64,000 nt of DNA. It comes from Promethearchaeota archaeon (GTDB lineage: Archaea > Asgardarchaeota > Lokiarchaeia > Sigyniarchaeales > SOKP01). Both the position numbers and the translations under genes were made by a program. The notes below the pieces were generated by a model. It saw only the letters and a program-made list of their open reading frames with translations. It did no database searches and was not told the DNA's origin. Below are positions 3,184-17,068 of the stretch, piece after piece. How positions within the stretch are numbered: the stretch's first letter is position 1; each line of letters begins with the position of its first letter. The stretch lies in assembly GCA_016839765.1 (NCBI GenBank), contig JAEOTP010000007.1, positions 64,001-128,000 on the forward strand. The letters are read 5' to 3'.

Positions 3184-5337
3184 TTAAACCAAACTCAATT
3201 TATTATTACAACTGGGGCAAAATAGGGGTAATTCTTGTTCACATGATTCTAGTATATCACTATTTAGCATCTTTCTCCAGCATACTAGTTTATCTTCTGA
3301 TTGAATCATATCTCTTCCATGATGTTGAGGTATAATCCGTTTTGTTTTACAGTTCTCGCAAATTATCATAATTGATTCTGTATTAATATTATCGGAAGAG
3401 ATTTCAGAAATTTTATTTTTATAACGAAATATTCTCATAGCGTTCAACATTACGGCGAGTGAAACTCCCATATCGCCAATTCCTACAGCTAACCATAATG
3501 TCATTAACCCAATGACCGTTAAAACAGCAAAAGACACTTTAATACTAATTGATGCCCAGATATTTTGTTTTATAATTTTATTTGTTTTCTTTGAGATATC
3601 AATAAAATCAATAATTTTTTTAAGATCATCATTTATAATGATAACATCAGCAGTTTCTAAGGTAAGATCTGTAGCAGAAGCACCAATGGCTATTCCTAGA
3701 TCTGATAACGCTAAAGCAGGAGCGTCATTTATTCCATCTCCCACCATCGCAACACCTTTATAATTAGCTTTTAATTTTTTAATTTCCTCCAATTTTTGGT
3801 CTGGCAATAGTTCACCGTATATATTATCTATATCTAAACAATAACCAATTGTATTGCATACATTTTGATTATCACCTGATATTAGAATAGATTTATATTT
3901 TCTTCTTTTCAAACCATCTATTAATAAAGGAGAAGTTATTCTTAAGACATCTCGAATAGAAATTAATCCAATTAGTCCATTATTTCCAACCAATATTGGG
4001 ATAGTTCCATTCTCTTCAATTTCTTTTAATTCTTCAATTGGTAGATTAAAATTAAGCTCATTAAAAAATTTCTGGCTACCAATATAATATAATCTTCCGT
4101 TAATCTCTCCCTTTATTCCCATTCCTTTTGAGATTTCAAAATTAGTGACATTCAATAAATCAACATTCATCCTTTTAGCTTGGCTAACAATTGCTTGACC
4201 AATAGGATGTTCTGAAAGTGATTCTAAACTCGCTGCGATGCCTAATATTGCATTCTCATCATATCCCCCATAAGCTCTAACCTCAAAAACTTTAAGAGAT
4301 CCCTCCGTTAGCGTCCCAGTTTTATCAAATGCAATTGCTTGAATTTTATCAACTTTTTCAATAAATACATTTCCTTTTACTAAGATACCTTCTTTTGCCA
4401 ATTTTGTGAGCGCTGTAATATTTGCTAATGGCGTTGAGAGTGTTAAAGCACAAGGGCATGATACTACTAGCAAAATTAAGCCACGATAGAACCAATTATT
4501 AAAATCTAATCGAAATATTAACGGAGGTAATATCATTACTATAAGTGACATAATTAGTATTATTGGAGTATAATACTTGGCAAACTTCTCAATAAATTTC
4601 TCACTTTTACTTTTATTTTGCTGTGCTTCTTTTATACTTCGTGCAATTTGAGCTACAACAGTATCATTGGTTTCTCTAATTACTTCAACGTCAACAAAAC
4701 CCTCAGAATTAATACTAGCAGCAAAGACCTCATCTCCTTCAATTTTAAATACTGGTAAAGATTCACCCGTAATTGTACTTTCATCAAAATACGATTTACC
4801 TTTTATAATAATACCATCTAAAGGAACTTTCATTGCTGGTTTCACACCTATTATATCTCCCTTTTTAATTTGGATAGCTGGTACAGAAATATACTCATTT
4901 CCTTTTTTTAACAATGCTTCATTAGGAGATAATTCAAGTAATTCTTTAATTGCATCTCGAGATTTATCTGTGGTAAGTTCTTCTATATGTTCTGCAATAG
5001 CATATAGTAGTATGGCAGTTGCGCCTTCTTGACCATGGAGAATAAAAAAGGAAGCAATAGTTGCAATTATCATTAAAATATTTGCCGTTATTTTTTTATT
5101 AATTACATCTTTAATTGCTTCTTTAACTACACCATAACTAGATAGAATTATCGAAAAGATTGCTAACAATTGGCCTATCAAGACTTCTTCAAAAGCAAAT
5201 TCCAAAAAAATAGCTATTGTTAATAGTATTGCAGAAGGTATTATGAAATACCAAAACTTTTTCTCAAAAAAAGTGCTTTCTTCTATTTCTTCTATGTTAA
5301 TATCACAAGCAGCGTGTGAACATTCAAAATGAGAGAT
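3184..5337 (-). CDS. P1B-type heavy-metal (Zn/Cd/Co-like) translocating ATPase with C-terminal Cys/His-rich domain
   Basis: TGES, SCPC, DKTGT, SEHP, GDGINDAP motifs; frame extends 44 codons upstream of the TTG at 5205 to an ATC at 5337, which follows a GGTGA RBS. Confidence 0.9.
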   Translation of the reverse strand: MSHFECSHAACDINIEEIEESTFFEKKFWYFIIPSAILLTIAIFLEFAFEEVLIGQLLAIFSIILSSYGVVKEAIKDVINKKITANILMIIATIASFFILHGQEGATAILLYAIAEHIEELTTDKSRDAIKELLELSPNEALLKKGNEYISVPAIQIKKGDIIGVKPAMKVPLDGIIIKGKSYFDESTITGESLPVFKIEGDEVFAASINSEGFVDVEVIRETNDTVVAQIARSIKEAQQNKSKSEKFIEKFAKYYTPIILIMSLIVMILPPLIFRLDFNNWFYRGLILLVVSCPCALTLSTPLANITALTKLAKEGILVKGNVFIEKVDKIQAIAFDKTGTLTEGSLKVFEVRAYGGYDENAILGIAASLESLSEHPIGQAIVSQAKRMNVDLLNVTNFEISKGMGIKGEINGRLYYIGSQKFFNELNFNLPIEELKEIEENGTIPILVGNNGLIGLISIRDVLRITSPLLIDGLKRRKYKSILISGDNQNVCNTIGYCLDIDNIYGELLPDQKLEEIKKLKANYKGVAMVGDGINDAPALALSDLGIAIGASATDLTLETADVIIINDDLKKIIDFIDISKKTNKIIKQNIWASISIKVSFAVLTVIGLMTLWLAVGIGDMGVSLAVMLNAMRIFRYKNKISEISSDNINTESIMIICENCKTKRIIPQHHGRDMIQSEDKLVCWRKMLNSDILESCEQELPLFCPSCNNKLSLV

Positions 5338-5477
5338 TTTTTATCACCTAATTTAAAAATACTGAAGAAAACATAAAAACTTGATATTTATGGATAATAA
5401 AAAAAAATCCGTTCTAAAGTTATTAGATATTGATATTTAGTTAAATTTATTATTTTTCAAAAAAAATTCTAAAAAAT

Positions 5478-6359
5478 TTACTTGATAACATATACTAATT
5501 TTTGACCCTCATCTAGAGGAAGGTTTAATTTTTTTCTAATTTCATTTCTTATCAAATATCCACCTACATGAAGAATAGAATCTTTTAAAATTGAGTCTTG
5601 GTCCATGGAAGCATTACACGGATATGAATGATGTGCTTTACTAATTCTTTCATTTAAACTGAGTTCTCCATTACTAATATATTTACTCTTTAATTGTTGT
5701 AGTATAAAATAAGTTGAGCCACATGGAGCACTTTGTAGAACACAGCTGTCTAAAATAGCGTTTCCCTCTTTATTTAATAAAAACGAAATTATAGGAACGC
5801 CTATTTTAAAGTATTCAATAAATTCTAATATGTAATTTCTATCTTTAGTGATATTGAACCCTTCTCTATTATGTTCATTAAGCTCTTTGCTCAATGAACA
5901 GAAAGGTTTCGGAAAAGCGGCTTGAATACCAAATTGCTCAAAATCATTTATAATTTGCACTTGTAATCCCGGTGGAACCCATTTCGGGTTTTCAATTGGA
6001 ACTATAACAGCCTTTATTTTTGTATTCTTCAGATATTCAGGTAATCCTGATAGTAAATCTTGATGAATCCCAACGACTAATAAAAACTCCACCTGTGGTA
6101 TATTTTTTGGTAAATAATCCTCAGGGTTTTCTATAAAACCTGGAACATTTTCTCCAATTTTCTCATAGAAGTAAACAGAACCTGAATAATTTTTTAAATT
6201 TTCTCTACAATGGTCACACTTTACATTTTGTTCGTATAATTCACATGCTTTACAGAATTGATCATCATTAATAAGATTTCCAATAAATTTTTGAGCTAAC
6301 ATCTCTGTATCGGGATCTGCGCCATAGAATACTCCAAGTTTATAATGCTTATCGTTCAT
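5478..6359 (-). CDS. DUF166 family protein
   Basis: HQDL, FPKPFCSL, SAPCGST, YPCNASM..D..LHxGG motifs typical of archaeal DUF166. Confidence 0.75.
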   Translation of the reverse strand: MNDKHYKLGVFYGADPDTEMLAQKFIGNLINDDQFCKACELYEQNVKCDHCRENLKNYSGSVYFYEKIGENVPGFIENPEDYLPKNIPQVEFLLVVGIHQDLLSGLPEYLKNTKIKAVIVPIENPKWVPPGLQVQIINDFEQFGIQAAFPKPFCSLSKELNEHNREGFNITKDRNYILEFIEYFKIGVPIISFLLNKEGNAILDSCVLQSAPCGSTYFILQQLKSKYISNGELSLNERISKAHHSYPCNASMDQDSILKDSILHVGGYLIRNEIRKKLNLPLDEGQKLVYVIK

Positions 6360-6580
6360 TATGAATTATATTTAGTTATTACTTTTATTTATAATTCTAA
6401 TATTTTAAAAACCTTATAATTTTTAACCCGAACATCTTCATTTGCTTTATAATTTCAATTTTAAATAATAATATAGTGAAGAAAGGATTAATATGAGGCA
6501 TTATAATTTAAATACTATATGCATTATGCTTATCATATAATATATTATTTTAAAAAGAAATTTTTTCACTCTATTACGAA

Positions 6581-7417
6581 ATGGAGATTTTAGAAATAAG
6601 AAAAGAAATAATCATTGATTTAAGGAATGAAATTCCAGAATTAGTGGACAAATTTAACCATTTCATATTAAAAAAGTTACCTAGTAAAAAAAACTCCGTT
6701 TTAAATATAGTGTTTAACCAGAAAACGGATCGATTTCCTAAAGAATTTATAATTAAATTATTTAGAACTGATAAATCTAAAAATGAATATTATACCTTGA
6801 ATAATTTAACAAAACAAGAAATAAAATTGCCAAAAATTCTCTTTTTTAAAGAACCATACTTATTTCTTAAGAAAATAAAAGGAGTAAATCTATGTGATTT
6901 CATTAATGATAAATTGCGAAATGTTGTAAGTATAGATGATTTAGATCCAGAATCTAAAGAAGGAATATTTGAAGGTTTAAACAAATTAGCTGCCTGGTTA
7001 GCTCAGTTACATAATATGAATATTGTAGATGCTTCTGACAATTCAAAAATCATCGTTTTAAACAAAGGAGACACAAGATTGAGAGATTTTATTTATAACA
7101 TTGATAAAAATAAAATATCTGGAGTCGATTTTGAAGATTCCTACAATGGAAATCATTTAGATGATATTACATGGATTTGTTGTTCCTTACTTGATACTAA
7201 TCCCGGAATATTTGAATTAGATAATCCAAAATTAAAGATTGATTTGATTAATTACTTTTTACAAAGTTATTATAAAATAAATACTAATTTTCACTTTGAT
7301 TATAATTATTTTGTAGGACAACTGATTGAAAACCTTAATCTCGTAATGAGAAGAAGAAATATCAATTTAACTCTTGATAAAGCATACTTTATTGAAGATA
7401 TTTCAAAAGAACTCTAA
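6581..7417 (+). CDS. Protein kinase-like (APH/RIO/Bud32-type) phosphotransferase
   Basis: IIKLF...NEY, LAxWLAxLH, NKGDTRLRDF catalytic loop, GVDFE, DDI motifs. Confidence 0.75.
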   Translation: MEILEIRKEIIIDLRNEIPELVDKFNHFILKKLPSKKNSVLNIVFNQKTDRFPKEFIIKLFRTDKSKNEYYTLNNLTKQEIKLPKILFFKEPYLFLKKIKGVNLCDFINDKLRNVVSIDDLDPESKEGIFEGLNKLAAWLAQLHNMNIVDASDNSKIIVLNKGDTRLRDFIYNIDKNKISGVDFEDSYNGNHLDDITWICCSLLDTNPGIFELDNPKLKIDLINYFLQSYYKINTNFHFDYNYFVGQLIENLNLVMRRRNINLTLDKAYFIEDISKEL

Positions 7418-7524
7418 TAACTTTTCTTCTCCTTTTTAAAACTTCCTTCTTAAAAAAGCATATTTAATAATAATTACCCTATACATTTATTATAATTTTA
7501 TTCAAAATTGTAGGAGATTTAGTA

Positions 7525-8277
7525 ATGAGTACACCATTATTAGACGCAAAAACCTCGTTAAAGAAAATATTATCTAATGTTGATTATTTAGAGAGCTTAA
7601 ATAAGGATTATATACCTAAATTAAAAGAATTACCAACAAATTTACTAGAGGCTATTCAAAAACTTGAAGATGAGAAAAATGGAATATTGAAGTCAATCGA
7701 TCATAATTCAGATGAAATAAATTCATATAAAAATAAAATAACTGAAAATCAGAGGGAAGTTTCAAAACTCGAGGAATCTAACAGTGACTTAACACAACAG
7801 CGTCAAAACCTTATGGATAAGATACAAAATAAGCAAAATCAATTAAAAGCGACTAACGATACTATTAGAGTAAAAAATGAAGAATTTTCAAACCGTACGA
7901 AACGATTGAATGAGTTAGAGAATAAAATCATAGACTTATCCAGAGAATTACTTCAATCTGAAGATAATTTAAAACAGATTGAGAAAGATCTTGAAAATAC
8001 TTTTCTCAAAAAAGAACGACAAGTCCAGAACTTTGGATATTGCGTGCAAGCAATGAAAATTCTTATTAATAAAAAATATATAAATTCATCATTATATCAA
8101 TTCATAAGAGCATTACAAGTAGGAAGTGCATTAGAAGTAAAAAATATCTTATTAGCAATCGATATGAGGGAAGATCAAGCAATAAAGATTCTTAGTAAAA
8201 TGTTAGAAGAAAATGGTCCAATTGAATTTGATTCAGCAACCGGGACAGTAACATTAAAACAGGAGGTGGATTTCTGA
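7525..8277 (+). CDS. Coiled-coil protein with C-terminal winged-helix-like domain (A)
   Basis: About 150 aa of heptad repeats, then a helix-turn-helix with beta-wing (GPIEFDSATGTVTL); GGAG RBS. Confidence 0.7.
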   Translation: MSTPLLDAKTSLKKILSNVDYLESLNKDYIPKLKELPTNLLEAIQKLEDEKNGILKSIDHNSDEINSYKNKITENQREVSKLEESNSDLTQQRQNLMDKIQNKQNQLKATNDTIRVKNEEFSNRTKRLNELENKIIDLSRELLQSEDNLKQIEKDLENTFLKKERQVQNFGYCVQAMKILINKKYINSSLYQFIRALQVGSALEVKNILLAIDMREDQAIKILSKMLEENGPIEFDSATGTVTLKQEVDF

Positions 8278-9014
8278 TGAGCTCAAACTTAAAGGATGTG
8301 TTCGGATTGATTGAAACACTCGAAAAATCTTTAGATGGATATCAGCAATTTTTTCAAAAAACTCACGAAACTTTAACACAAGATTTGAGTACTGCTTGGA
8401 AAAGAATGAAAGATGAACAAAAAGAAATTGAAGATTTTGAAGCCGTTGTTCGTTCACAAAATTCCGAACTTACTGAATTAAAGCTTAAATCTGACGAATT
8501 AGATAAGAAACTTACTGAAGTACAGAAGATAAAAAGTGAATTGACGTCAAAAATTTCTGAATTAAATAGTTCTTTAGAAACGGTAAATGATGACCTTAAA
8601 ACACCTCAATTAGAATTAGAAAATTTAATGACAAAGTTAAATTCTTTAAATCAAAAGATTATGTCGAAAGAAGATGAAAAATCTGCGATGGATCAGAAAA
8701 AAATGGATTACCAGAATCGCGAGAATTACCTACAAACTACATATACGGAAGAAAAAATGGCTGATCTGAATACGAAATTATCTCAGTTAAAAAGAAATAA
8801 TTTCTTTACGTCGTTTTTAATTGAAAATTCTGAAGAAAAAATTCCAGAAGTAGATATTATCGCAACTATAATGACCCAAGGAAGTGTGAATCTCGATGAA
8901 CTCAAGAAACTACTCGATGTCCCCCCAATTATGGCAGTTAGAACAATTAAACAGCTAGCAATTGCTGGAATTATAAATTTAGATGAAGATACTAATATAA
9001 TCACTATGCCTTAG
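8277..9014 (+). CDS. Coiled-coil protein with C-terminal winged-helix-like domain (B)
   Basis: TGATG overlap with the upstream gene, GGAGGTG RBS; heptads, then GSVNLDELKKLLDVPPIMAVRTIKQLAIAGIINLDEDTNIIT. Confidence 0.72.
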   Translation: MSSNLKDVFGLIETLEKSLDGYQQFFQKTHETLTQDLSTAWKRMKDEQKEIEDFEAVVRSQNSELTELKLKSDELDKKLTEVQKIKSELTSKISELNSSLETVNDDLKTPQLELENLMTKLNSLNQKIMSKEDEKSAMDQKKMDYQNRENYLQTTYTEEKMADLNTKLSQLKRNNFFTSFLIENSEEKIPEVDIIATIMTQGSVNLDELKKLLDVPPIMAVRTIKQLAIAGIINLDEDTNIITMP

Positions 9015-9190
9015 AATTTATGAAATTGAATATTTTTTGTTTTTTCTTTTTTTAAAAATTAAATATTATTCTATATATTTTAATTAAGGGCTATATCCCT
9101 ATTCTATCGTTATTTCCCACCATACATAACACTTATAAATCATTTCAATTTATCATTCTTAACATATTTACATAAAACAAATAGATTAGA

Positions 9191-10369
9191 ATGAAATCAA
9201 AAGATATAATAATCGGAGTATTACTAATTATTTCAGTAGGTTTAGCTGGGGGATTAGGATTTATTTTAATTACATGGGAACCCAAAACGACAAGCCCTCC
9301 CACTTATCTTTCTGGTTTACCCGATGATTGGAGTACTGCGCCAAATTCTAGTTATTTAATTTTAAACAATCAAACTCACAGTGATATTAAAGTTTATTTC
9401 GAAGATATATTAAAAGCAATAGATACTTATCAAAATTCTCAAACAAACGCTTATGAGACTGGATTAGAAATAAAAACAATTATAGATCCAGACACTAACA
9501 TTCCTATAACCGGCTTTAGTATAACTGATTTATTTGATGAATATAATACTTACTTTCCAGGGGAGATTCATTTTCTTTCTGAGGAGGATGTGTATGGGCA
9601 AAGAAATATATTCAATACTTCTGCAAGTGATATCTTAGAAAAACTGGAGGATGGGGATGAAACCCTGATGATTGCTATCGCAGCAAATAAACAATGGTTA
9701 GCAGATTCTCCTTTAGGGGATAAGTTTGGAAATTTTACTTTAATTGGAGAAGGAATGGATGCTCGTATTTGCAATTTAGAACAAATAAATGTTCTTAGTA
9801 ATTGGACTTTAGATATCTATTTAGATGATGAGTTAAAACTTTCTTTACAACCAAATAATATAACAGATGCTTCCTATAAATATAGCTATATATATTCTTA
9901 TAATCGGTCTGATGATTGGAGTATGAATAGATATTATGCCGGAGTAAATCTATCAATGCTTTGTGACTGGGTGGGGCTTAATGACAGTGTAGATTTTGAA
10001 TTAAAGGCTTGGGCAGCTGATAACTTTGCAGCTCCTCATGGGTCATCAAAAAAACGTGGATTCACTGAAATTGAAGTTTATCATGGATTAGAATGGAATT
10101 CAACTTATTGGGATTATGTTAATTCAACAGATCCAGGTGATCCCGGAGTGCCCCTACCTGATGTATATGACGATTTACCAATTATTTTAGCATATGAACT
10201 TCAAATATTAGGGGAATATGATGGAACATCTACAGCAATAAATCCTTCTTGGCCTTCTAAAAAAATCTGTGGTTTCGGTAATGGACCATATGTATTAATG
10301 GTCCCCGGTAGAGTACGTTCATGGCAAATCAAAATGATAAATAGAATTGAAATTATTACTAATCCATAA
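9191..10369 (+). CDS. Membrane-anchored extracellular protein with two degenerate sulfite-oxidase-type molybdopterin-binding domains
   Basis: N-terminal TM; YAGVNLSML, AADNF, IILAYE, GPYVLMVPG...IKMINRIE match the Oxidored_molyb pattern. Confidence 0.65.
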   Translation: MKSKDIIIGVLLIISVGLAGGLGFILITWEPKTTSPPTYLSGLPDDWSTAPNSSYLILNNQTHSDIKVYFEDILKAIDTYQNSQTNAYETGLEIKTIIDPDTNIPITGFSITDLFDEYNTYFPGEIHFLSEEDVYGQRNIFNTSASDILEKLEDGDETLMIAIAANKQWLADSPLGDKFGNFTLIGEGMDARICNLEQINVLSNWTLDIYLDDELKLSLQPNNITDASYKYSYIYSYNRSDDWSMNRYYAGVNLSMLCDWVGLNDSVDFELKAWAADNFAAPHGSSKKRGFTEIEVYHGLEWNSTYWDYVNSTDPGDPGVPLPDVYDDLPIILAYELQILGEYDGTSTAINPSWPSKKICGFGNGPYVLMVPGRVRSWQIKMINRIEIITNP

Positions 10370-10471
10370 ATATTTTTTTAATATTGAATATTTCATCCTT
10401 TCAGTATTCATAATGGTAAGCTTAATATTTGTTATAAAATATAGACATAAACTCGAATTTAAATAAAGAAG

Positions 10472-11020
10472 ATGAAAACCAGAAATTTTTATATACTTAT
10501 ATCATCGATAATTGTTGGAATGGTAATTTTCTGGTTATTTTTATATGCAATAGTTGAATTGGATGCAGATCTATTTCAAGATCCTAACTCGGTCACAATT
10601 CGAGGAAGTGGATTAAATAGAGAAATAACTTTAACCATCACCCAATTAAAATCAGATAAATATGATCAAGTTATAGATAAAACCTATCATTTTATGGATT
10701 TTTTTGAAACAGAATATGATATAATATATTCGGGAGTGTCATTGTGGAGTATATTAGAAGAAGAAAATTTGATCTATGGAGAAATTTCAATACTTAAATT
10801 TGAATTCTGGGGAAGAGACCTTTATCATTCTCCAAAAGCCTTAAATCTGTCCATTGTGAAAGATCATCCTGAATTGGTTATTATCGCTTATGAGGAAAAC
10901 GGGGCTCCATTATTTGGAGACGGGCCATTAAGATCAGTCTTGGATCAATCAATATTGCCAGATGGAGAGTATGGTTCTCAATATTCTGTACAAATGTTAA
11001 GTGAGATCATTATAAAATAA
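10472..11020 (+). CDS. Membrane-anchored molybdopterin-binding-like domain protein (single domain)
   Basis: N-terminal TM; YSGVSLWSIL, IIAYEENGAPL..GPLRSV, SVQMLSEI motifs; no Cys. Confidence 0.72.
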   Translation: MKTRNFYILISSIIVGMVIFWLFLYAIVELDADLFQDPNSVTIRGSGLNREITLTITQLKSDKYDQVIDKTYHFMDFFETEYDIIYSGVSLWSILEEENLIYGEISILKFEFWGRDLYHSPKALNLSIVKDHPELVIIAYEENGAPLFGDGPLRSVLDQSILPDGEYGSQYSVQMLSEIIIK

Positions 11021-11036
11021 TACTGAGTTATGAATA

Positions 11037-11681
11037 ATGAAAATGAATGATAAAGAGATAGCTGAACAGAAGGAAAATAAAGAATATCAACAAAAATTCA
11101 AAGAAACTGGTTTCATTGAAAAAAAGAAAATTACCAATCTTGATCTAATATATTCCTTTATAATTGGAGTATTAGGAGGGATTATTTCCAGTTTAATTCC
11201 TTTTAGTCTCTTAATCAAAGTATGGTTTCCTTTTACGGGAGGAACTCAGTTAGTAAGTGGTCATCATGTTATTTGGGCATCAATAGTTTATGGTTTAACA
11301 AAGAAGAAACAAAACGTTTTCTTTACTATGATTTCTAAAGGATTACTTGAGTTTTTATTAGGAGATCAATTAGGTTTACTAATAATTTTCGTTAATTTCA
11401 TGGAAGCTTTCTTCTTAGTAATAGGTTTTCTTATAATGGAAAAAGTAGGTGAAGGAGAAACTAAATTAGGATGGGGGATCGCAGGAGGTTTCGGAAACAT
11501 TTTTCAAGCACCATTCATTTGGATCATCAAACAACGTTGGTTTCTTCATTGGAGTCTTTGGGCACTAGCTTTTATCTTTGCTTTTCTATCTGGTATATTT
11601 ATAGTTGGTTTATTAGGCAGAACTATAAAGAATGAATTAATAAAGGCAGGAGTTCCAATAACGTTTCAAATAGAGGTGTGA
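11037..11681 (+). CDS. ECF transporter S component
   Basis: About 6 TM, Gly-rich, C-terminal L.KAGV; immediately upstream of the ECF ATPase and T component. Confidence 0.8.
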   Translation: MKMNDKEIAEQKENKEYQQKFKETGFIEKKKITNLDLIYSFIIGVLGGIISSLIPFSLLIKVWFPFTGGTQLVSGHHVIWASIVYGLTKKKQNVFFTMISKGLLEFLLGDQLGLLIIFVNFMEAFFLVIGFLIMEKVGEGETKLGWGIAGGFGNIFQAPFIWIIKQRWFLHWSLWALAFIFAFLSGIFIVGLLGRTIKNELIKAGVPITFQIEV

Positions 11682-11688
11682 TTTTTAA

Positions 11689-13494
11689 ATTTCAAATATT
11701 GCTCTTTCTTTTGAGAACTTTTCTTTTATATACAATCAAGATAAAAAGCAAAAGCCATGTGTCTCGGATATAAACTTCCAATTAAAAGAAGGTGAGACTT
11801 TAATTTTAGCAGGTCCAAGTGGGAGCGGTAAATCTACTTTATCGTATGCCATGAATGGAATTATCCCTTGGAGACAAAAAGGTTTGGTTAAAGGAGATGT
11901 TAAAATTTATGGAAAAAGTTTCTGGGATTATTCATTTTCAGATTTATCTAAAATAGTGGGATTAGTAAAGCAAAATCCTATTGAACAATTAGTAACTTTT
12001 ACAGTAAGAGATGAAATTGCTTTTGGATTGGAAAATCTAAACTGTTCGAAACAAGAGATAGAAGCTAAAATTGAAGAGATTTCCAAACTAATGGGATTAA
12101 ATAATATTTTGGATCGTTCAGTTGAGCAATTAAGTGGGGGTCAAAAACAACTTACTATATTAAGTTCATTTTTAGTAATGAATCCCAAAATCCTTATTTT
12201 AGATGAGCCAATAGCATTTTTGGATCAACAATCTGAGAGTTTACTCCTTGATAGGTTAAAAAGTTTAATTAAATCCAAGGAGTACTCTTTAACATTAATA
12301 ATAATTGAGCATCGTTTATCTCGTGTTATTGATAGTGCAGATAAATTGGTAATTCTTGATGAAACTGGAAAAATAGCTCTAAAAGGAGACGTCACTGATA
12401 TATTACAGAACCACTTTGATGAGTTAAAATCATGTAATGTAAGAGTACCATGGTTAATTGACATCTTTGATGCTTACAGAAAAATTACCAAAAATGAATT
12501 TGTAATTGAAAATTCCATGAATTTTCAAAAATTCTTTAATTTAATATCTAAATTTGATGAAAATAACCTAAAGATTTTACAAAATATTATTGAAAATAAA
12601 GAAATACAAACAAAAGAATTACAAAAATATCAAGAATTAGAAAAAAGAATTGATATAAATGAGACTTATGTAAAGTCATTAAAAAATAAGAAGTTTAATG
12701 GAAATGAACAAGATTTTAATGATGAAATTTCAAATGAAAACAATATAATTTTAGAAACTAAGGATCTTTCCTTTAGTTATCCAAACAGCGGTGTTCAGGC
12801 TTTAAAAGGTTTATCCATAAAAATACAGAAAGGGGATTTTATTGGTCTTATTGGTCCAAATGGATCTGGTAAAACTACGCTTCTTTACTTGCTAGCTAAT
12901 TTATACAAACAAACATCTGGTGAAATTTTTTATCAGAATAAAAGATTAGATGATACTGATCCTTATAATTATGCCAAAAAAGTTGGTTTTATATTTCAAA
13001 ATCCTGAAAATATGATATTCAAATCTACAATTAAAGATGAAATCTTATACGCCCCTAGAAATTTTGGGATCTATAAAGAGTTAAGAGAGGAATACGTTAA
13101 AAAATTAATAGATTTAATCGGAAATGAGGATCCATTGAAAAATCCATATAATTTAAGTTGGGGTCAAAAAAGGCGTTTGAATTTAAGTTCTATATTTATT
13201 TATAGTCCTGAGATCATCTTATTAGATGAGCCTTTTATTGGTCAAGATCAAAAAACTATTGATTCTTTAATAGAAACGCTCTATATTGAAAACAAAAGAG
13301 GAAAAACAATAATCATTTCCTCCCATGATTATCATTTATTATTAAAGTATACAAAAAGGATTATTGAACTAAGTAAAGACGGAACACTTCAAAATTATGA
13401 TACTAAAAGTAATTATTTTATCAAACATAGTAATCTCGGACCTATTATACTCTTAAACGAGATTAATAATAAGTTAAATGAGGTTGGAATTTAA
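11689..13494 (+). CDS. ECF transporter fused double ATPase (A-A')
   Basis: Two NBDs: GPSGSGKS (upstream of the ORF-track ATG at 11851)/LSGGQ/LDEP and GPNGSGKT/LSWGQ/LDEP; start inferred at ATT 11689. Confidence 0.9.
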   Translation: MSNIALSFENFSFIYNQDKKQKPCVSDINFQLKEGETLILAGPSGSGKSTLSYAMNGIIPWRQKGLVKGDVKIYGKSFWDYSFSDLSKIVGLVKQNPIEQLVTFTVRDEIAFGLENLNCSKQEIEAKIEEISKLMGLNNILDRSVEQLSGGQKQLTILSSFLVMNPKILILDEPIAFLDQQSESLLLDRLKSLIKSKEYSLTLIIIEHRLSRVIDSADKLVILDETGKIALKGDVTDILQNHFDELKSCNVRVPWLIDIFDAYRKITKNEFVIENSMNFQKFFNLISKFDENNLKILQNIIENKEIQTKELQKYQELEKRIDINETYVKSLKNKKFNGNEQDFNDEISNENNIILETKDLSFSYPNSGVQALKGLSIKIQKGDFIGLIGPNGSGKTTLLYLLANLYKQTSGEIFYQNKRLDDTDPYNYAKKVGFIFQNPENMIFKSTIKDEILYAPRNFGIYKELREEYVKKLIDLIGNEDPLKNPYNLSWGQKRRLNLSSIFIYSPEIILLDEPFIGQDQKTIDSLIETLYIENKRGKTIIISSHDYHLLLKYTKRIIELSKDGTLQNYDTKSNYFIKHSNLGPIILLNEINNKLNEVGI

Positions 13495-14369
13495 TGAAAG
13501 ATAAGAACAAAGTGTTAGACTATAAGAAATATACATTTGCATATTTTCCTGGAAATTCACTTTTTCATAAATTAAATCCCATCTCAAAGATTATTTTTTT
13601 AATTTTTCTCACGATAATTACGTTTATAATAAAATCTTTACTTTTCTTGACTCTTCTTTTGTTTATTATTATATTATTGACATTTTTTAGTAGCATTTCT
13701 CTAAAAAATTTTCTTAGAAAAACTAGATTTATTATTCTTATTCTAATTTTTAGTGTTTTTCTTAATCTTTTTTTTAACGCTATCCCGAGCGATCAGGATA
13801 TAGTTCTATTTTATCTATTTAATTTAGATTTTTTACCTATAAGAAGATTAGCAGTATATTATGCGCTTAGAGCATTACTAATTGTTCTCACATTATATAG
13901 CTCCACAATTATTTTTAGTAATACAACTTCTGCTAAAGATTTTGTATATTCTTTAATGAAACTGAGGATTCCATACAAATATTGTTTTTCATTCATGGTT
14001 GGAATTAAATATATTCCTTCAATTGAACAAGAAGCAAAAACTATTTCCCTAGCTCAGAGAGCAAGAGGTTTTGGTTTAGAGAAAGCAAATACTATTAAGA
14101 AAGCTTACCGATTAATTTCTGAAAGATTGATGTCCACTTTAGTATCCATCCTTAGAAAAGGGCATACTACTTCTATTTCAATGGAAAATCGTTGCTTTGG
14201 ATTATATAAAAAAAGAACTAATATTACAGAAATCAAATATAAATTATTGGATATCGTTTTTATTTGTTTTTGTACTTTTTGGTTTGTATTAATTACACTA
14301 TATTTATTTAAAATTTTGCCGATACCACAATTCCCTTCCTTATATCAAATATACTTAAACCTCTTTTAA
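13494..14369 (+). CDS. ECF transporter transmembrane T component (CbiQ/EcfT)
   Basis: LHKLNP..K-like start, AQRARG and MENRCF motifs; TAATG coupling. Confidence 0.92.
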   Translation: MKDKNKVLDYKKYTFAYFPGNSLFHKLNPISKIIFLIFLTIITFIIKSLLFLTLLLFIIILLTFFSSISLKNFLRKTRFIILILIFSVFLNLFFNAIPSDQDIVLFYLFNLDFLPIRRLAVYYALRALLIVLTLYSSTIIFSNTTSAKDFVYSLMKLRIPYKYCFSFMVGIKYIPSIEQEAKTISLAQRARGFGLEKANTIKKAYRLISERLMSTLVSILRKGHTTSISMENRCFGLYKKRTNITEIKYKLLDIVFICFCTFWFVLITLYLFKILPIPQFPSLYQIYLNLF

Positions 14370-14460
14370 GAACTTTTGAATCAAACCTAAACCTATTTTA
14401 TTATTTTCAGCTTAAGATTTCAGTAGTTTAATTTTTTAGAAATGAAATATTACTTAAATT

Positions 14461-15333
14461 ATGGTCAATACCATGGCAACTGTTGAAGAAATTCAACAAA
14501 AATATGCGATTGTTGGAAGAACCGAAGAGCTGAAAAAATTAATATTAGCTCGATCTGTTGGAAAACATATTTTAATCGAAGGAGAAGTTGGAGTCGGAAA
14601 AACAACCGTTGCGCGAGCTATCTCTTCTTATTTCGATTCTGGCTTTTATAGAGTTGACTGTAATGAAGAGACTTTATCACATAATCTTGTTGGATATTGG
14701 GACCCCCCCTTAGTAATAGCAAAGGGCTATATAGAAGATTCTTATGTATTTGGGCCACTTGCTTCTGCTATGCTTAATGGAGGGTGTCTATTCATTAATG
14801 AAATAAATAGAATGCCAGAAAGCACTCAAAATTCTTTGTTAACTGCTTTGGATGAAGGAATTCTAGACATTCCTAAATTAAAAACTATTCGCGCCCATAA
14901 AGATTTCTTTGTTGTGGCAACCCAAAATCCTGCTGCTCATGTAGGTGTGACTGTTTTAGGAGAGGCTTTAAAAGATAGATTTATATGGGTTAAATTAGAT
15001 TACCAGAACCCTGAAGAAGAAATTTTAATTATAAAAAAAGAAGCAAACCTTCATGATTCGAATAGTGATAACGTGGCAAAAGTCTGCCAAAATATAATTC
15101 AAATGACACGAGAACTTACATCAATTCGTCGAGGTAGTTCAATAAGAGGTGCAATCGATCTTGCTGGATTGATTTCTAATTCTGGTAAAGAAAGTAGCAC
15201 CAAAAATTGGGTTGAAGCAGGTATTATGGCTTTATATAATAAAATCGAATTAGAAGATGGTGTAACTAGATCAAAGATAGAAATCATTACAGATATTATT
15301 CTTTCTACTTTAAATGAAGTGGATTTTCAATAA
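14461..15333 (+). CDS. MoxR-family AAA+ ATPase
   Basis: GEVGVGKT Walker A, FINEINR Walker B variant, ATQNP, ALKDRF. Confidence 0.9.
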   Translation: MVNTMATVEEIQQKYAIVGRTEELKKLILARSVGKHILIEGEVGVGKTTVARAISSYFDSGFYRVDCNEETLSHNLVGYWDPPLVIAKGYIEDSYVFGPLASAMLNGGCLFINEINRMPESTQNSLLTALDEGILDIPKLKTIRAHKDFFVVATQNPAAHVGVTVLGEALKDRFIWVKLDYQNPEEEILIIKKEANLHDSNSDNVAKVCQNIIQMTRELTSIRRGSSIRGAIDLAGLISNSGKESSTKNWVEAGIMALYNKIELEDGVTRSKIEIITDIILSTLNEVDFQ

Positions 15334-16445
15334 TCGATGATTTCTCTTCTAAAGATTCTGAAGAGATTGAGAATGAACGGTTGCACGTAAGATTAACAGA
15401 AAGGATCCCCGATAAGGATATTTTAAGATTCGAGATCATAAGAAAAAAAAAGAAAAAACCTGATTATTATCATCATTTAGCAGATTCATTGGATTATAAA
15501 CAAATTAAAGACTTAACCTTTTTAGCGATTGAATATAAAAATCTCGAAGCCATTATAGGGTTGCTTAAATCAAATGTGTACGCTGCTACAGATGCTTTAG
15601 ATTGTGATAAGGGCGTTAAATTCTTCTCGGAAAAGTCAAAAGATTCAGCAACCTCTATGGCGGAAGTTTATTTTTTCATAAGAAGACCTATCTCTGATAA
15701 ATATAAAAATGTTTTTAGGCGATTAGCCAGACAAAGTATACTAAAAACTTCTCTTAAAATAACAAGTAAAGGAATAAGAGGAAGTTACAAAAAAACAGTT
15801 CCATATTATGAGATAGGAATGCCTGAATTTGATATAGATGAAACTATACAGCATAACCCTCTAAAAATCCATCAGAGAAGTTTATCTTATAAAGATATTT
15901 ACGGTATTAAAAGAAAACAACAAAAGAGGAAAATCATTTTAATTCTTGATACGAGTGGAAGTATGTATGGAAAACTTCTTCTAAATGCTGCTTTAACGAC
16001 TTCGGTATTAGCTTATAACATGGAAAAAGAAGATTATGCAATCGTGTTATTTAACTCAACAGCCATGGTTTTAAAACATATTAATGAAAGAAAACTAATT
16101 ACAGCTATAATAGATGAGATTCTTGATTCTGAAGCAGTTGGTTTTACAAACATCCAAGTTGGCTTAGAAAAAGGATTGAAAGAATTAAGTAAAGTAAAGA
16201 AGAATCCAAGAAATCAATTTGGAATTTTAATTACAGATGGTAATTATAATCGTGGGGAAAAACCATTTGAATTGGCTAAAAAATATCCAAAATTACATGT
16301 AATAGGGATGCCCGCTGAAAATGATGCTGATAGGGGTATTGATACGTGTAAAGAGATTGCAAAAAAAGGGCGCGGCAAATTCTATGCTGTAAATGACTAT
16401 AAGGAAATTCCTAGGGCTTTAATTGAATTATTATCGAAAACATGA
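15333..16445 (+). CDS. VWA-domain protein, MoxR partner (start uncertain: ATA 15330, ATC 15333, TTG 15381, or a frameshift fusion)
   Basis: DTSGS MIDAS, FTNI, LITDG; frame is open back to 15318. Confidence 0.85.
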   Translation: MDDFSSKDSEEIENERLHVRLTERIPDKDILRFEIIRKKKKKPDYYHHLADSLDYKQIKDLTFLAIEYKNLEAIIGLLKSNVYAATDALDCDKGVKFFSEKSKDSATSMAEVYFFIRRPISDKYKNVFRRLARQSILKTSLKITSKGIRGSYKKTVPYYEIGMPEFDIDETIQHNPLKIHQRSLSYKDIYGIKRKQQKRKIILILDTSGSMYGKLLLNAALTTSVLAYNMEKEDYAIVLFNSTAMVLKHINERKLITAIIDEILDSEAVGFTNIQVGLEKGLKELSKVKKNPRNQFGILITDGNYNRGEKPFELAKKYPKLHVIGMPAENDADRGIDTCKEIAKKGRGKFYAVNDYKEIPRALIELLSKT

Positions 16446-16477
16446 TTTAATTCCTTAATAAAAATATAGTTGGAAGA

Positions 16478-16942
16478 ATGGAAAAAATAATAAGACTTGT
16501 CTCAGAAAAAGATTTCAACCTTTTAAAAGAAATGTATCTTCAAGATGTTGAAAGCCATGAGCAGAGAGCGAAGCAATTCGCTGAAGATTTAGTCCATAGG
16601 TTAAAAACAATTATTTGTGTAACTGATGGTAAATTAATAGGAACTATTTCTTGGGATACTCGAGGTGGCTTAAATGATGGTGTCATTGAACTCATCGGGT
16701 TGGGCATAACTCAAAAGTTCAGAAGACAAGGAATTGCTAAGGAATTAGTTTTGACTTTAATAGAAAAAGCAAAAGCTTTCTATAAATTGTCAGGTTATAA
16801 ATTAAGGGTTATTTACTTTTTTATGGAAAGGCAAAATAAAGGGGGTCGAGCGTTCTATAAACATATGGGATTTCGTGAAGTTTCAATTATACCAGCTTTT
16901 TATCCACATGATGATGCTGTGTTATGGATTAAATATTTCTAG
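16478..16942 (+). CDS. GNAT family N-acetyltransferase
   Basis: FRRQGIA motif A, N...RAFYKHMGF. Confidence 0.9.
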   Translation: MEKIIRLVSEKDFNLLKEMYLQDVESHEQRAKQFAEDLVHRLKTIICVTDGKLIGTISWDTRGGLNDGVIELIGLGITQKFRRQGIAKELVLTLIEKAKAFYKLSGYKLRVIYFFMERQNKGGRAFYKHMGFREVSIIPAFYPHDDAVLWIKYF

Positions 16943-17068
16943 TTTAATTTTAAATTAATTTTGAAAAAAATTCTAAATTAATATTGGAAAACAATTTTAG
17001 AAAATATAGAATTTTTTAAATTAAAAAATCTTATTTCAATAAAACACTAATTTTTAGTTGGATTAAAG

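Follow-up and report, generated by a model that had tools for sequence, protein, structure and literature searches.

We report a five-gene module of a Promethearchaeota archaeon that is probably a dedicated group I ECF importer of the ready-made W/Mo pyranopterin cofactor, that is, molybdopterin already carrying its metal, or a compound closely derived from it. The module occupies positions 9191-14369 of the window, a 64,000-nt stretch of contig JAEOTP010000007.1 (assembly GCA_016839765.1). This proposal is based on the predicted folds and the missing Cys of two surface proteins, the operon and its conserved linkage, a locus that occurs in three states, a distribution complementary to that of the cofactor genes and, in bacterial relatives, a Moco riboswitch and a fusion of the S component to a SUOX-like domain. 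We know of no prokaryotic system that takes up this cofactor in its finished form, and our literature search found neither a prokaryotic Moco transporter nor an Asgard Moco auxotrophy described.

Gene order and transporter components

A preliminary description of this DNA had listed five co-oriented genes, two for surface proteins and then those for S, A-A' and T components, and the open reading frames agree with it in position and strand (Table 1). The S and ATPase genes are separated by 7 nt, and the T gene overlaps the ATPase stop codon by 1 nt (a gap of -1 nt). With an S component, two A domains and a T component in one operon, the system belongs to ECF group I. The order S, A-A', T is identical in the related loci L001, L003, L005, L006, L007 and L013, and the linkage of the surface proteins to the ECF genes is conserved, being kept in relatives at 42-80% identity and recurring in Firmicutes. 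The MoxR gene begins 91 bp after the T component gene. An Rfam scan of positions 5000-17000 gave zero matches.

Table 1. Features of the module and its right flank, in positions of the window
Feature	Position	Strand	Remarks
392-aa surface protein (P0001)	9191..10369	+	N-terminal TM anchor; domain 1, residues 50-204; probable diverged domain 2, residues 205-392
182-aa surface protein (P0002)	10472..11020	+	N-terminal TM anchor; one Cys-free domain of predicted SUOX/PruR fold, residues 37-182
ECF S component, PF09819 (YkoE) type, 214 aa	11037..11681	+	
Fused EcfA-EcfA' ATPase	11689..13494	+	Frame open from 11689; first ATG at 11851
ECF T component, CbiQ family, 291 aa	13494..14369	+	
MoxR AAA+ ATPase and VWA protein	14461..16445	+	Conserved right flank of the locus

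The S component scored 24.8 bits against PF09819, just under the cut-off of 25.2, and most of its relatives, which share 57-80% identity across the family, carry PF09819. In the Pfam scan of the five proteins PF09819 was the only domain given by the S component, and neither CbiM nor CbiN was detected; a phmmer search with the S component matched no PDB chain, YkoE included. In the JGI annotation, relatives of this protein are named 'thiamin/hydroxymethylpyrimidine transport'. The ATPase matches TIGR04520/04521, as expected of a double ATPase, and the T component matches CbiQ. The first Walker A motif of the fused ATPase lies 5' of its first ATG, inside the open frame, so that the start codon of this gene is perhaps non-canonical.

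Surface proteins with a predicted sulfite oxidase-like fold

Each surface protein has one N-terminal hydrophobic helix, and P0001 contains 11 N-x-S/T sequons. Pfam and NCBIfam scans of both proteins gave no significant match (PF00174 against P0002, E = 0.058), and a sequence-profile search of the PDB with a surface-protein domain retrieved SorA at only E = 0.05; PF00174 is present in more distant members of the P0002 family. The AF2 model of P0002 (pLDDT 91) aligned with the Moco domain of SorA over 129 residues (Z = 15.9, rmsd 2.0 Å) and, across the whole domain, with the PruR structures 7rkb, 7kos and 7kom (Z of about 14), whereas the best unrelated fold reached only Z = 5. Structure searches with P0001, whose matches mostly reflect domain 1, gave sulfite oxidase (SorA and the chicken enzyme) and PruR at Z of about 13-13.5. 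Thus, as modeled, P0002 and domain 1 of P0001 have the SUOX/PruR fold (Z = 13-16), and for these two the preliminary claim of three sulfite oxidase-type domains holds. Domain 2 of P0001 may be a third, diverged SUOX-like domain, an assignment that is weakly supported: hhalign places it in register at E = 1e-3, in profile-profile comparisons of the three domains that are weak (E = 1e-3 to 4e-3, probability below 20%), and PF00174 occurs in just 22% of the members of its closest ESM Atlas cluster (score 0.93).

The pterin-side motifs GV.LW, AYE.nG and GP.R were retained, as had been noted, in register with the SUOX Moco domain, and G-P-x-R-S is invariant in the P0002 family. The Mo-ligating Cys, which had been reported missing, is indeed absent from both families. 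P0002 itself has no Cys, its family has Cys confined to the TM helix, no Cys position is invariant in the P0001 family, and none of the 19 + 24 members of the surface-protein families showed a conserved Cys outside the TM helix. The segment that bears this Cys in SorA is 22 aa long in P0002, against 37 aa in SorA. Judging from these sequences, the surface proteins would not be expected to be catalytic.

A locus in three states and its distribution

Between DUF166 and MoxR-VWA, one syntenic locus of related genomes occurs in three versions: with the module, with tupABC-moaCADE-moeA-moaB, and with the two together. In genome G291 the module is followed by TupABC, moaCADE-moeA-moaB-moeA and MoxR-VWA, and genome G113 has the cofactor-gene locus without the module. 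The MoxR-VWA pair is the right flank in all three states; it may be a cofactor-handling chaperone and is a candidate member of the system.

The own genome, 95.9% complete, encodes eight AOR proteins (all intact), three MopB and one SUOX. Using domain profiles and tblastn, we did not find MoaA (C-terminal domain), MoaC, MoaE, MoeA or MoaB in it, nor did we find TupA or ModA/WtpA; its sole MoCF ORF is CinA-like. ThiC is present. A MobA candidate obtained with TIGR02665 was dropped because the matches were non-specific, and a class of PF13531 solute-binding proteins (375-385 aa), absent here, was uninformative as it occurs in module-only and other genomes alike. Given that W/Mo enzymes are encoded without genes for cofactor synthesis or tungstate uptake, and that the importer sits where relatives have their cofactor genes, the cofactor is therefore probably external.

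We then considered the 135 genomes of the same GTDB family, which are related and so non-independent, as raw counts. The module was found in 51 genomes, MoaC in 66 and MoeA in 72. The module alone occurred in 42 and MoaC/MoeA alone in 64, with both of these states in at least five genera; nine genomes had both routes and 20 had neither. TupA was found in none of the 42 module-only genomes, and five of these that are 99-100% complete encode 3-19 AOR genes each. By comparison, the control gene ThiC was present in 121/135 whatever the module state, a dropout of about 10%. The co-occurrence with W/Mo enzymes and moa loss for which the preliminary description had called is thus strongly positive: the two routes are nearly mutually exclusive, they share one locus, and AOR is kept in module-only genomes. 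However, one of the 20 genomes with neither route is rated 100% complete and has 10 AOR genes, and this group implies either gaps in the MAGs or another route.

The Firmicutes relatives have the same architecture as the archaeal module (PF09819-type S, A-A', T), and in one of them, Anoxynatronum (locus L015, 18072-19190), the S component is fused to a SUOX-like domain, which predicts that the two touch each other directly. A Moco riboswitch (RF01055, 54-79 bits) lies immediately 5' of their operons, and no TPP riboswitch was found there. MoaC is present in three of the four bacterial carriers of the module. Taken with the nine genomes that have both routes, this means that the module is not strictly a substitute for synthesis.

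Proposed import of the finished cofactor and alternative explanations

We propose that the two anchored and probably glycosylated surface proteins, with catalytically dead domains of SUOX/PruR type, would catch cofactor shed by other cells and hand it to the YkoE-type S component, and that the EcfA-A' fusion together with the T component would power uptake. In this way AOR, MopB and SUOX enzymes would stay functional in lineages that deleted tupABC-moaCADE-moeA-moaB. Capture of Moco by Cys-less domains on behalf of the S component had been suggested in the preliminary description; the complementary distribution supports it, and from the data above we infer the identity of the ligand, its hand-off, the direction of transport and the link to syntrophy. 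PruR, a Cys-less SUOX fold that binds a pterin outside the cell (PMC11194511), provides a precedent by analogy. Several points count against import. Moco in free form is highly labile (PMC7849362), even if the organism lives without oxygen; the Cys hairpin has the shortened form seen in PruR, a protein with a cleft described as too short for Moco; bis-pterin/MGD forms would have to arise from the imported cofactor without MoeA; and the genomes with neither or both routes, as well as the bacterial carriers with MoaC, do not fit a simple exchange.

We also considered the possibility that the substrate is a different pterin, resembling folate, methanopterin or monapterin, or some micronutrient not yet recognized, so that the anticorrelation with moa would be a by-product of a shared variable locus. 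The top structural match, PruR, binds small pterins and shares the truncated Cys hairpin, and the substrate of an ECF system is not readable from sequence. Nevertheless, this seems unlikely: the module lies within a W/Mo cofactor supercluster, its bacterial relatives carry a Moco-specific riboswitch, its complementarity with the moa genes recurs in at least five genera, and AOR-rich genomes would be left without any cofactor source. An ECF-type importer of tungstate or molybdate, whose SUOX-like domains bind the oxyanion as NikK/NikL-type accessories do in metal ECF systems, is in our view quite improbable. Group I ECF systems already import Co and Ni, the module adjoins moa/moe genes in relatives, Moco riboswitches also control molybdate transporters, and neither ModA, WtpA nor TupA was found in the own genome. 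However, metal alone could not yield cofactor in the 42 module-only genomes, which have neither MoaC nor MoeA; where both routes coexist TupABC sits between module and moa, making an oxyanion-importing module redundant; and the S component resembles PF09819 and is not of CbiM/NikM type.

Thiamine or HMP import of the YkoEDC type, to which the automatic annotation of the S component points, is scarcely credible here, even with the PF09819 match, the JGI names and a layout of S, fused A-A' and T like that of YkoEDC (PMC5037267). Neither the Rfam scan nor the bacterial riboswitches gave a thiamine signal, ThiC is independent of the module and present in the own genome, YkoE was not matched in the PDB, and SUOX-like partners with a Moco riboswitch fit no thiamine logic. 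Very little also speaks for surface proteins that are sensors or cofactor-bearing enzymes to which the ECF module signals or exports cofactor. PruR does work as a sensor partner (PMC11194511), and ECF-dependent extracytosolic flavin trafficking is reported for Listeria ECF subunits (PMC9973259), but the operon has no gene for a signaling partner, the ligand Cys for Mo is absent, and module-only genomes make no cofactor for export.

Comparison with known systems

In Bacillus subtilis thiamine is imported by YkoEDC, a group I ECF transporter with YkoE as S component (PMC5037267). Both YkoEDC and the module are dedicated operons in which a fused A-A' ATPase and a CbiQ-type T component accompany the S component, which belongs to PF09819 in YkoEDC and is borderline to it here, and bacterial relatives of both systems are under riboswitch control. 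The module differs in its borderline S component without a PDB sequence match, in having at least two extracytoplasmic proteins of the predicted SUOX fold (in one bacterium, a fusion to S), and in a genomic and regulatory context of Mo/W cofactor and not of thiamine; ThiC does not co-vary with the module. PruR is found in the periplasm of Proteobacteria (PDB 7kom, 7rkb; PMC11194511), where it binds a pterin without catalysis; proteins of its type have a PW motif and hold the pterin in a Tyr/Trp sandwich. P0002 resembles it as a small secreted protein of predicted SUOX fold in which the Mo-ligating Cys is absent and the Cys hairpin shortened. However, PruR binds tetrahydromonapterin and pairs with the c-di-GMP enzyme DcpA for signaling, whereas the domains of the module are membrane-anchored, repeated and partnered by ECF genes, with no DcpA-type GGDEF-EAL partner among the neighbor genes, and their context points to molybdopterin. 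The Moco domain (PF00174) of sulfite oxidase, SorA and MsrP (YedY) shares the fold and the motifs in register, but the module proteins lack dimerization and heme domains in addition to the Cys, and their signal is a Sec-type anchor and not Tat.

CbiMNQO and NikMNQO (with NikK/L) and TupABC, ModABC and WtpABC provide the metal for cofactor biogenesis and are often encoded within cofactor operons, and some metal ECF systems likewise have extracytoplasmic accessory proteins. In contrast, the module has a different S type and persists after pterin synthesis has been lost, and it coexists with TupABC in both-route genomes. To our knowledge, Moco is generally regarded as self-made by every cell that uses it. 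Caenorhabditis elegans, which takes up dietary finished Moco, probably protein-bound, from other organisms (PMC7849362, PMC9793310), is similar in acquiring the finished cofactor, but it is a eukaryote and no homologous machinery is implied.

If our proposal is true, Moco/Wco would be a traded 'vitamin' of anoxic communities, and many Lokiarchaeia (42/135 in this family) would be natural cofactor auxotrophs relying on their neighbors. It would also correct the automatic 'thiamine/HMP' or 'cobalt' labels of the transporter family. The membrane passage of mature Moco, a question that also bears on the therapy of human Moco deficiency (PMC7849362), would become directly testable with a defined transporter and capture proteins. 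Finally, the importer would account for the survival of AOR-rich Asgard archaea that have no moa genes, and syntrophy models for these archaea, the nearest to eukaryotes, would gain a specific metabolic dependency.

Organization and conservation of the operon

The 9191-14369 region carries five tightly spaced ORFs in one orientation, and the ORFs and family models agree with the preliminary description of two surface proteins followed by the S, A-A' and T components of an ECF transporter. The ATPase ORF was listed as starting at ATG 11851. Given that the same frame is open from 11689, and that the first Walker A motif (GPSGSGKS) lies upstream of this ATG and aligns with the N-terminus of a relative, the gene spans approximately 11689-13494. 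The frame begins straight after a TAA at 11686-11688 (window 11683-11860). Because no ATG, GTG or TTG occurs between its opening and the Walker A motif, the start codon is probably non-canonical (ATT at 11689); a relative begins with GTG at the equivalent position.

The linkage was also found to be conserved. Relatives with as little as 42-47% identity, and with other genes on the flanks, share the order P0001-like, optional ~290-aa gene, P0002-like, S, A-A', T. Neighbours of this module include a genuine sulfite oxidase-fold (SUOX) enzyme, MoaD and MoaB in one related locus (L005), an AOR gene in another (L006), and moaC-moaA-moaD-moaE-moeA directly after the T gene in a third (L007). The ~290-aa gene, absent from the window, lies between two SUOX-like genes in many relatives; its copy in the related genome G291 hits PF09459 (EB_dh, heme-binding/DOMON-like; E 1e-10).

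Coordinates of features in the window and in related loci
Feature	Locus	Coordinates (strand)	Description
DUF166 gene	window	5478-6359 (-)	constant left flank; weak match to selenoprotein model DfsP
278-aa gene	window	within 6581-9014 (+)	constant left flank
Coiled-coil/winged-helix gene pair	window	7525-9014	some relatives only; outside module
P0001	window	9191-10369 (+)	392 aa; first of five ORFs
P0002	window	10472-11020 (+)	182 aa; second of five ORFs
S component	window	11037-11681 (+)	214-aa membrane protein; PF09819 at 24.8 bits (cut-off 25.2)
ATPase	window	~11689-13494 (+)	double ABC ATPase; matches ECF_ATPase_1 and ECF_ATPase_2
T component	window	13494-14369 (+)	CbiQ-type
MoxR-VWA	window	14461-16445 (+)	right flank
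MoxR-VWA	L013	17044-19001	right flank
MoxR-VWA	L014	1733-3714	right flank
~290-aa gene	L013	3295-4179	
~290-aa gene	L001	7131-7997	
~480-aa ORF	G171:C99	7110-8450	three tandem P0002-like domains; adjoins module
~480-aa ORF	G289:C4	109311-110615	three tandem P0002-like domains; adjoins module
Anoxynatronum sibiricum locus	L015	9305-23503	two Moco riboswitches

Fold of the surface proteins

P0001 and P0002 each have a single N-terminal hydrophobic helix, and P0001 has 11 N-glycosylation sequons, consistent with an extracellular location in an archaeon. Asgard metagenomes are the source of nearly all homologues, which belong to Promethearchaeota/Lokiarchaeota or, for some, are labelled Hod- or Odinarchaeota. 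Pfam at normal thresholds recognises neither protein; PF00174 is present on more distant P0002-family members. The number of P0002-like domains per protein ranges from 1 to 8.

The preliminary description had assigned three sulfite-oxidase-type domains to these proteins and noted that the Mo-ligating Cys is missing. In a structure search, the AF2 model of P0002 (pLDDT 91) matched the SorA Moco domain (Z 15.9, rmsd 2.0 Å, 129 residues) and other sulfite oxidases, YedY and the pterin-binding protein PruR (Z 12-15), with unrelated folds from Z 5 down. Residues 50-204 of the P0001 model (pLDDT 74) match the SUOX/YedY/PruR set at Z about 13, so that two of the three domains are supported. For residues 205-392, a profile alignment that runs in register (E 1e-3), together with the closest language-model cluster (score 0.93, PF00174 on only 22% of members), makes a third, diverged SUOX-like domain likely but unproven. 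The missing Cys was corroborated: P0002 has no cysteine, 19 of its relatives carry Cys in the TM helix only, and none is invariant in the P0001 family. Compared with SorA, P0002 is 15 residues shorter in the stretch that bears the Mo ligand there; the equivalent Cys-bearing stretch of PruR is likewise described as shortened (PMC11194511).

Alternation with cofactor biosynthesis

In the window's assembly (3.32 Mb, 95.9% complete), no match was found to MoaC, MoaE, MoeA_N, the MoaA C-terminal domain, ModA/WtpA or TupA, nor by tblastn with MoaC, MoaD, MoaE, MoeA and MoaB queries from relatives. The sole MoCF-domain ORF is a CinA-type protein, and the genome encodes 8 intact AOR genes, three MopB-family ORFs and one SUOX enzyme.

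The G291 locus is ordered module, TupABC, moaC-A-D-E, moeA, moaB, moeA, MoxR, VWA. In G113, a congener of the window's genome, TupABC and moa/moe lie between the same flanks (left, DUF166 and the 278-aa gene; right, MoxR-VWA) and the module is absent. In the window, MoxR-VWA follows the T gene by only 91 bp; this locus therefore lacks the entire block for tungstate uptake and cofactor synthesis. Either block can be lost with cofactor-dependent enzymes kept, as expected of two alternative routes to one product. The MoxR AAA+/VWA pair is the constant right flank in all three states, and by analogy may be a chaperone for cofactor insertion or handling; comparable pairs are CoxD/CoxE and chelatase pairs.

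Among 135 genomes in the window's GTDB family, the P0002 profile was detected in 51 and close S-component homologues in 47, almost the same set; MoaC was found in 66, MoeA in 72, a TupA-like protein in 56 and the control ThiC in 121. When the module was compared with MoaC and MoeA combined, 42 genomes were module-only, 64 biosynthesis-only, 9 had both and 20 neither. Together with the retained AOR genes, this bears out the proposed co-occurrence with W/Mo enzymes and moa loss. At least five genera include both single-route states, and the window's own genus contains 21 module-only, 12 biosynthesis-only and no dual genomes. The TupA-like tungstate-binding protein travels with moa/moe and occurs in 0 of the 42 module-only genomes. 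Five module-only genomes, 99-100% complete and one in about 10 contigs, carry 3-19 AOR genes.

Judging by the ThiC count, ordinary MAG dropout is about 10%, and much of the 'neither' class can be put down to it; members of this class keep AOR genes too, one being rated 100% complete. Five congeners (G138, G266, G281, G121 and G159) have 6-12 AOR genes, with module, MoaC and MoeA not detected, the 100%-rated genome among them; the cause is either gaps in the assemblies or another source of cofactor. For the window's P0002, the copies in two other genera are closer matches (E about 1e-85 to 1e-91) than are most own-genus copies (about 1e-73), a sequence pattern that suggests two subtypes or lateral module exchange among Lokiarchaeia.

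Bacterial relatives

Out of 1.84 billion, an exhaustive profile search retrieved only 209 representative proteins (E <= 1e-3), among them some with 6-8 domain copies, such as an SLH protein of Clostridium formicaceticum. In all four bacterial loci examined that encode its relatives (two from Anoxynatronum species, one from a Tissierellaceae MAG and one from a Bacillota MAG), the Moco/Wco riboswitch RF01055 lies directly upstream (54-79 bits; gathering score 36), which ties the system to the cofactor through regulation. In the Anoxynatronum sibiricum operon, a Cys-less 188-aa lipoprotein homologous to P0002 is followed by a metallophosphoesterase, by a PF09819 S component that carries a fused SUOX-like domain, and finally by the fused A-A' ATPase and the T component. 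The fusion of S component and SUOX-like domain favours the view that the two work together directly. At this locus, one riboswitch stands ahead of an SLH surface protein rich in SUOX-like repeats and then the rest of the operon, and a second precedes a PF12822 S component. MoaC is present in three of the four bacterial genomes, so that the system there supplements synthesis and does not replace it.

Interpretation

The best-supported reading, which we hold with moderate confidence, is that this ECF module imports W/Mo-pterin cofactor in ready-made form and that the SUOX-fold proteins capture it; the ligand, transport direction and hand-off are proposed parts of this reading. Because metal uptake is lost along with pterin synthesis and metal insertion, the imported compound is expected to contain the metal already. 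Import of tungstate itself is less likely than that of the cofactor. Thiamine/HMP import is also less likely, since ThiC is found whatever the module or biosynthesis state, which argues against such salvage. We likewise rank import of another pterin or some micronutrient, a sensing function, and cofactor export to surface proteins below cofactor import. Real reservations about cofactor import come from the shortened hairpin, from how labile free Moco is, and from the genomes that have both routes or neither.

In the literature searched, Moco uptake is described for nematodes only, and a riboswitch-regulon survey includes no Moco transporter among its coenzyme uptake systems. In the paper describing the first Asgard archaeon to be cultured, the compounds predicted to be exchanged are B12, biotin, lipoate and TPP; W/Mo-pterin cofactor is not among them. 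ECF importers and PruR-type binders are already known; if cofactor import is true, the novelty would lie in the substrate class and in the capture proteins.
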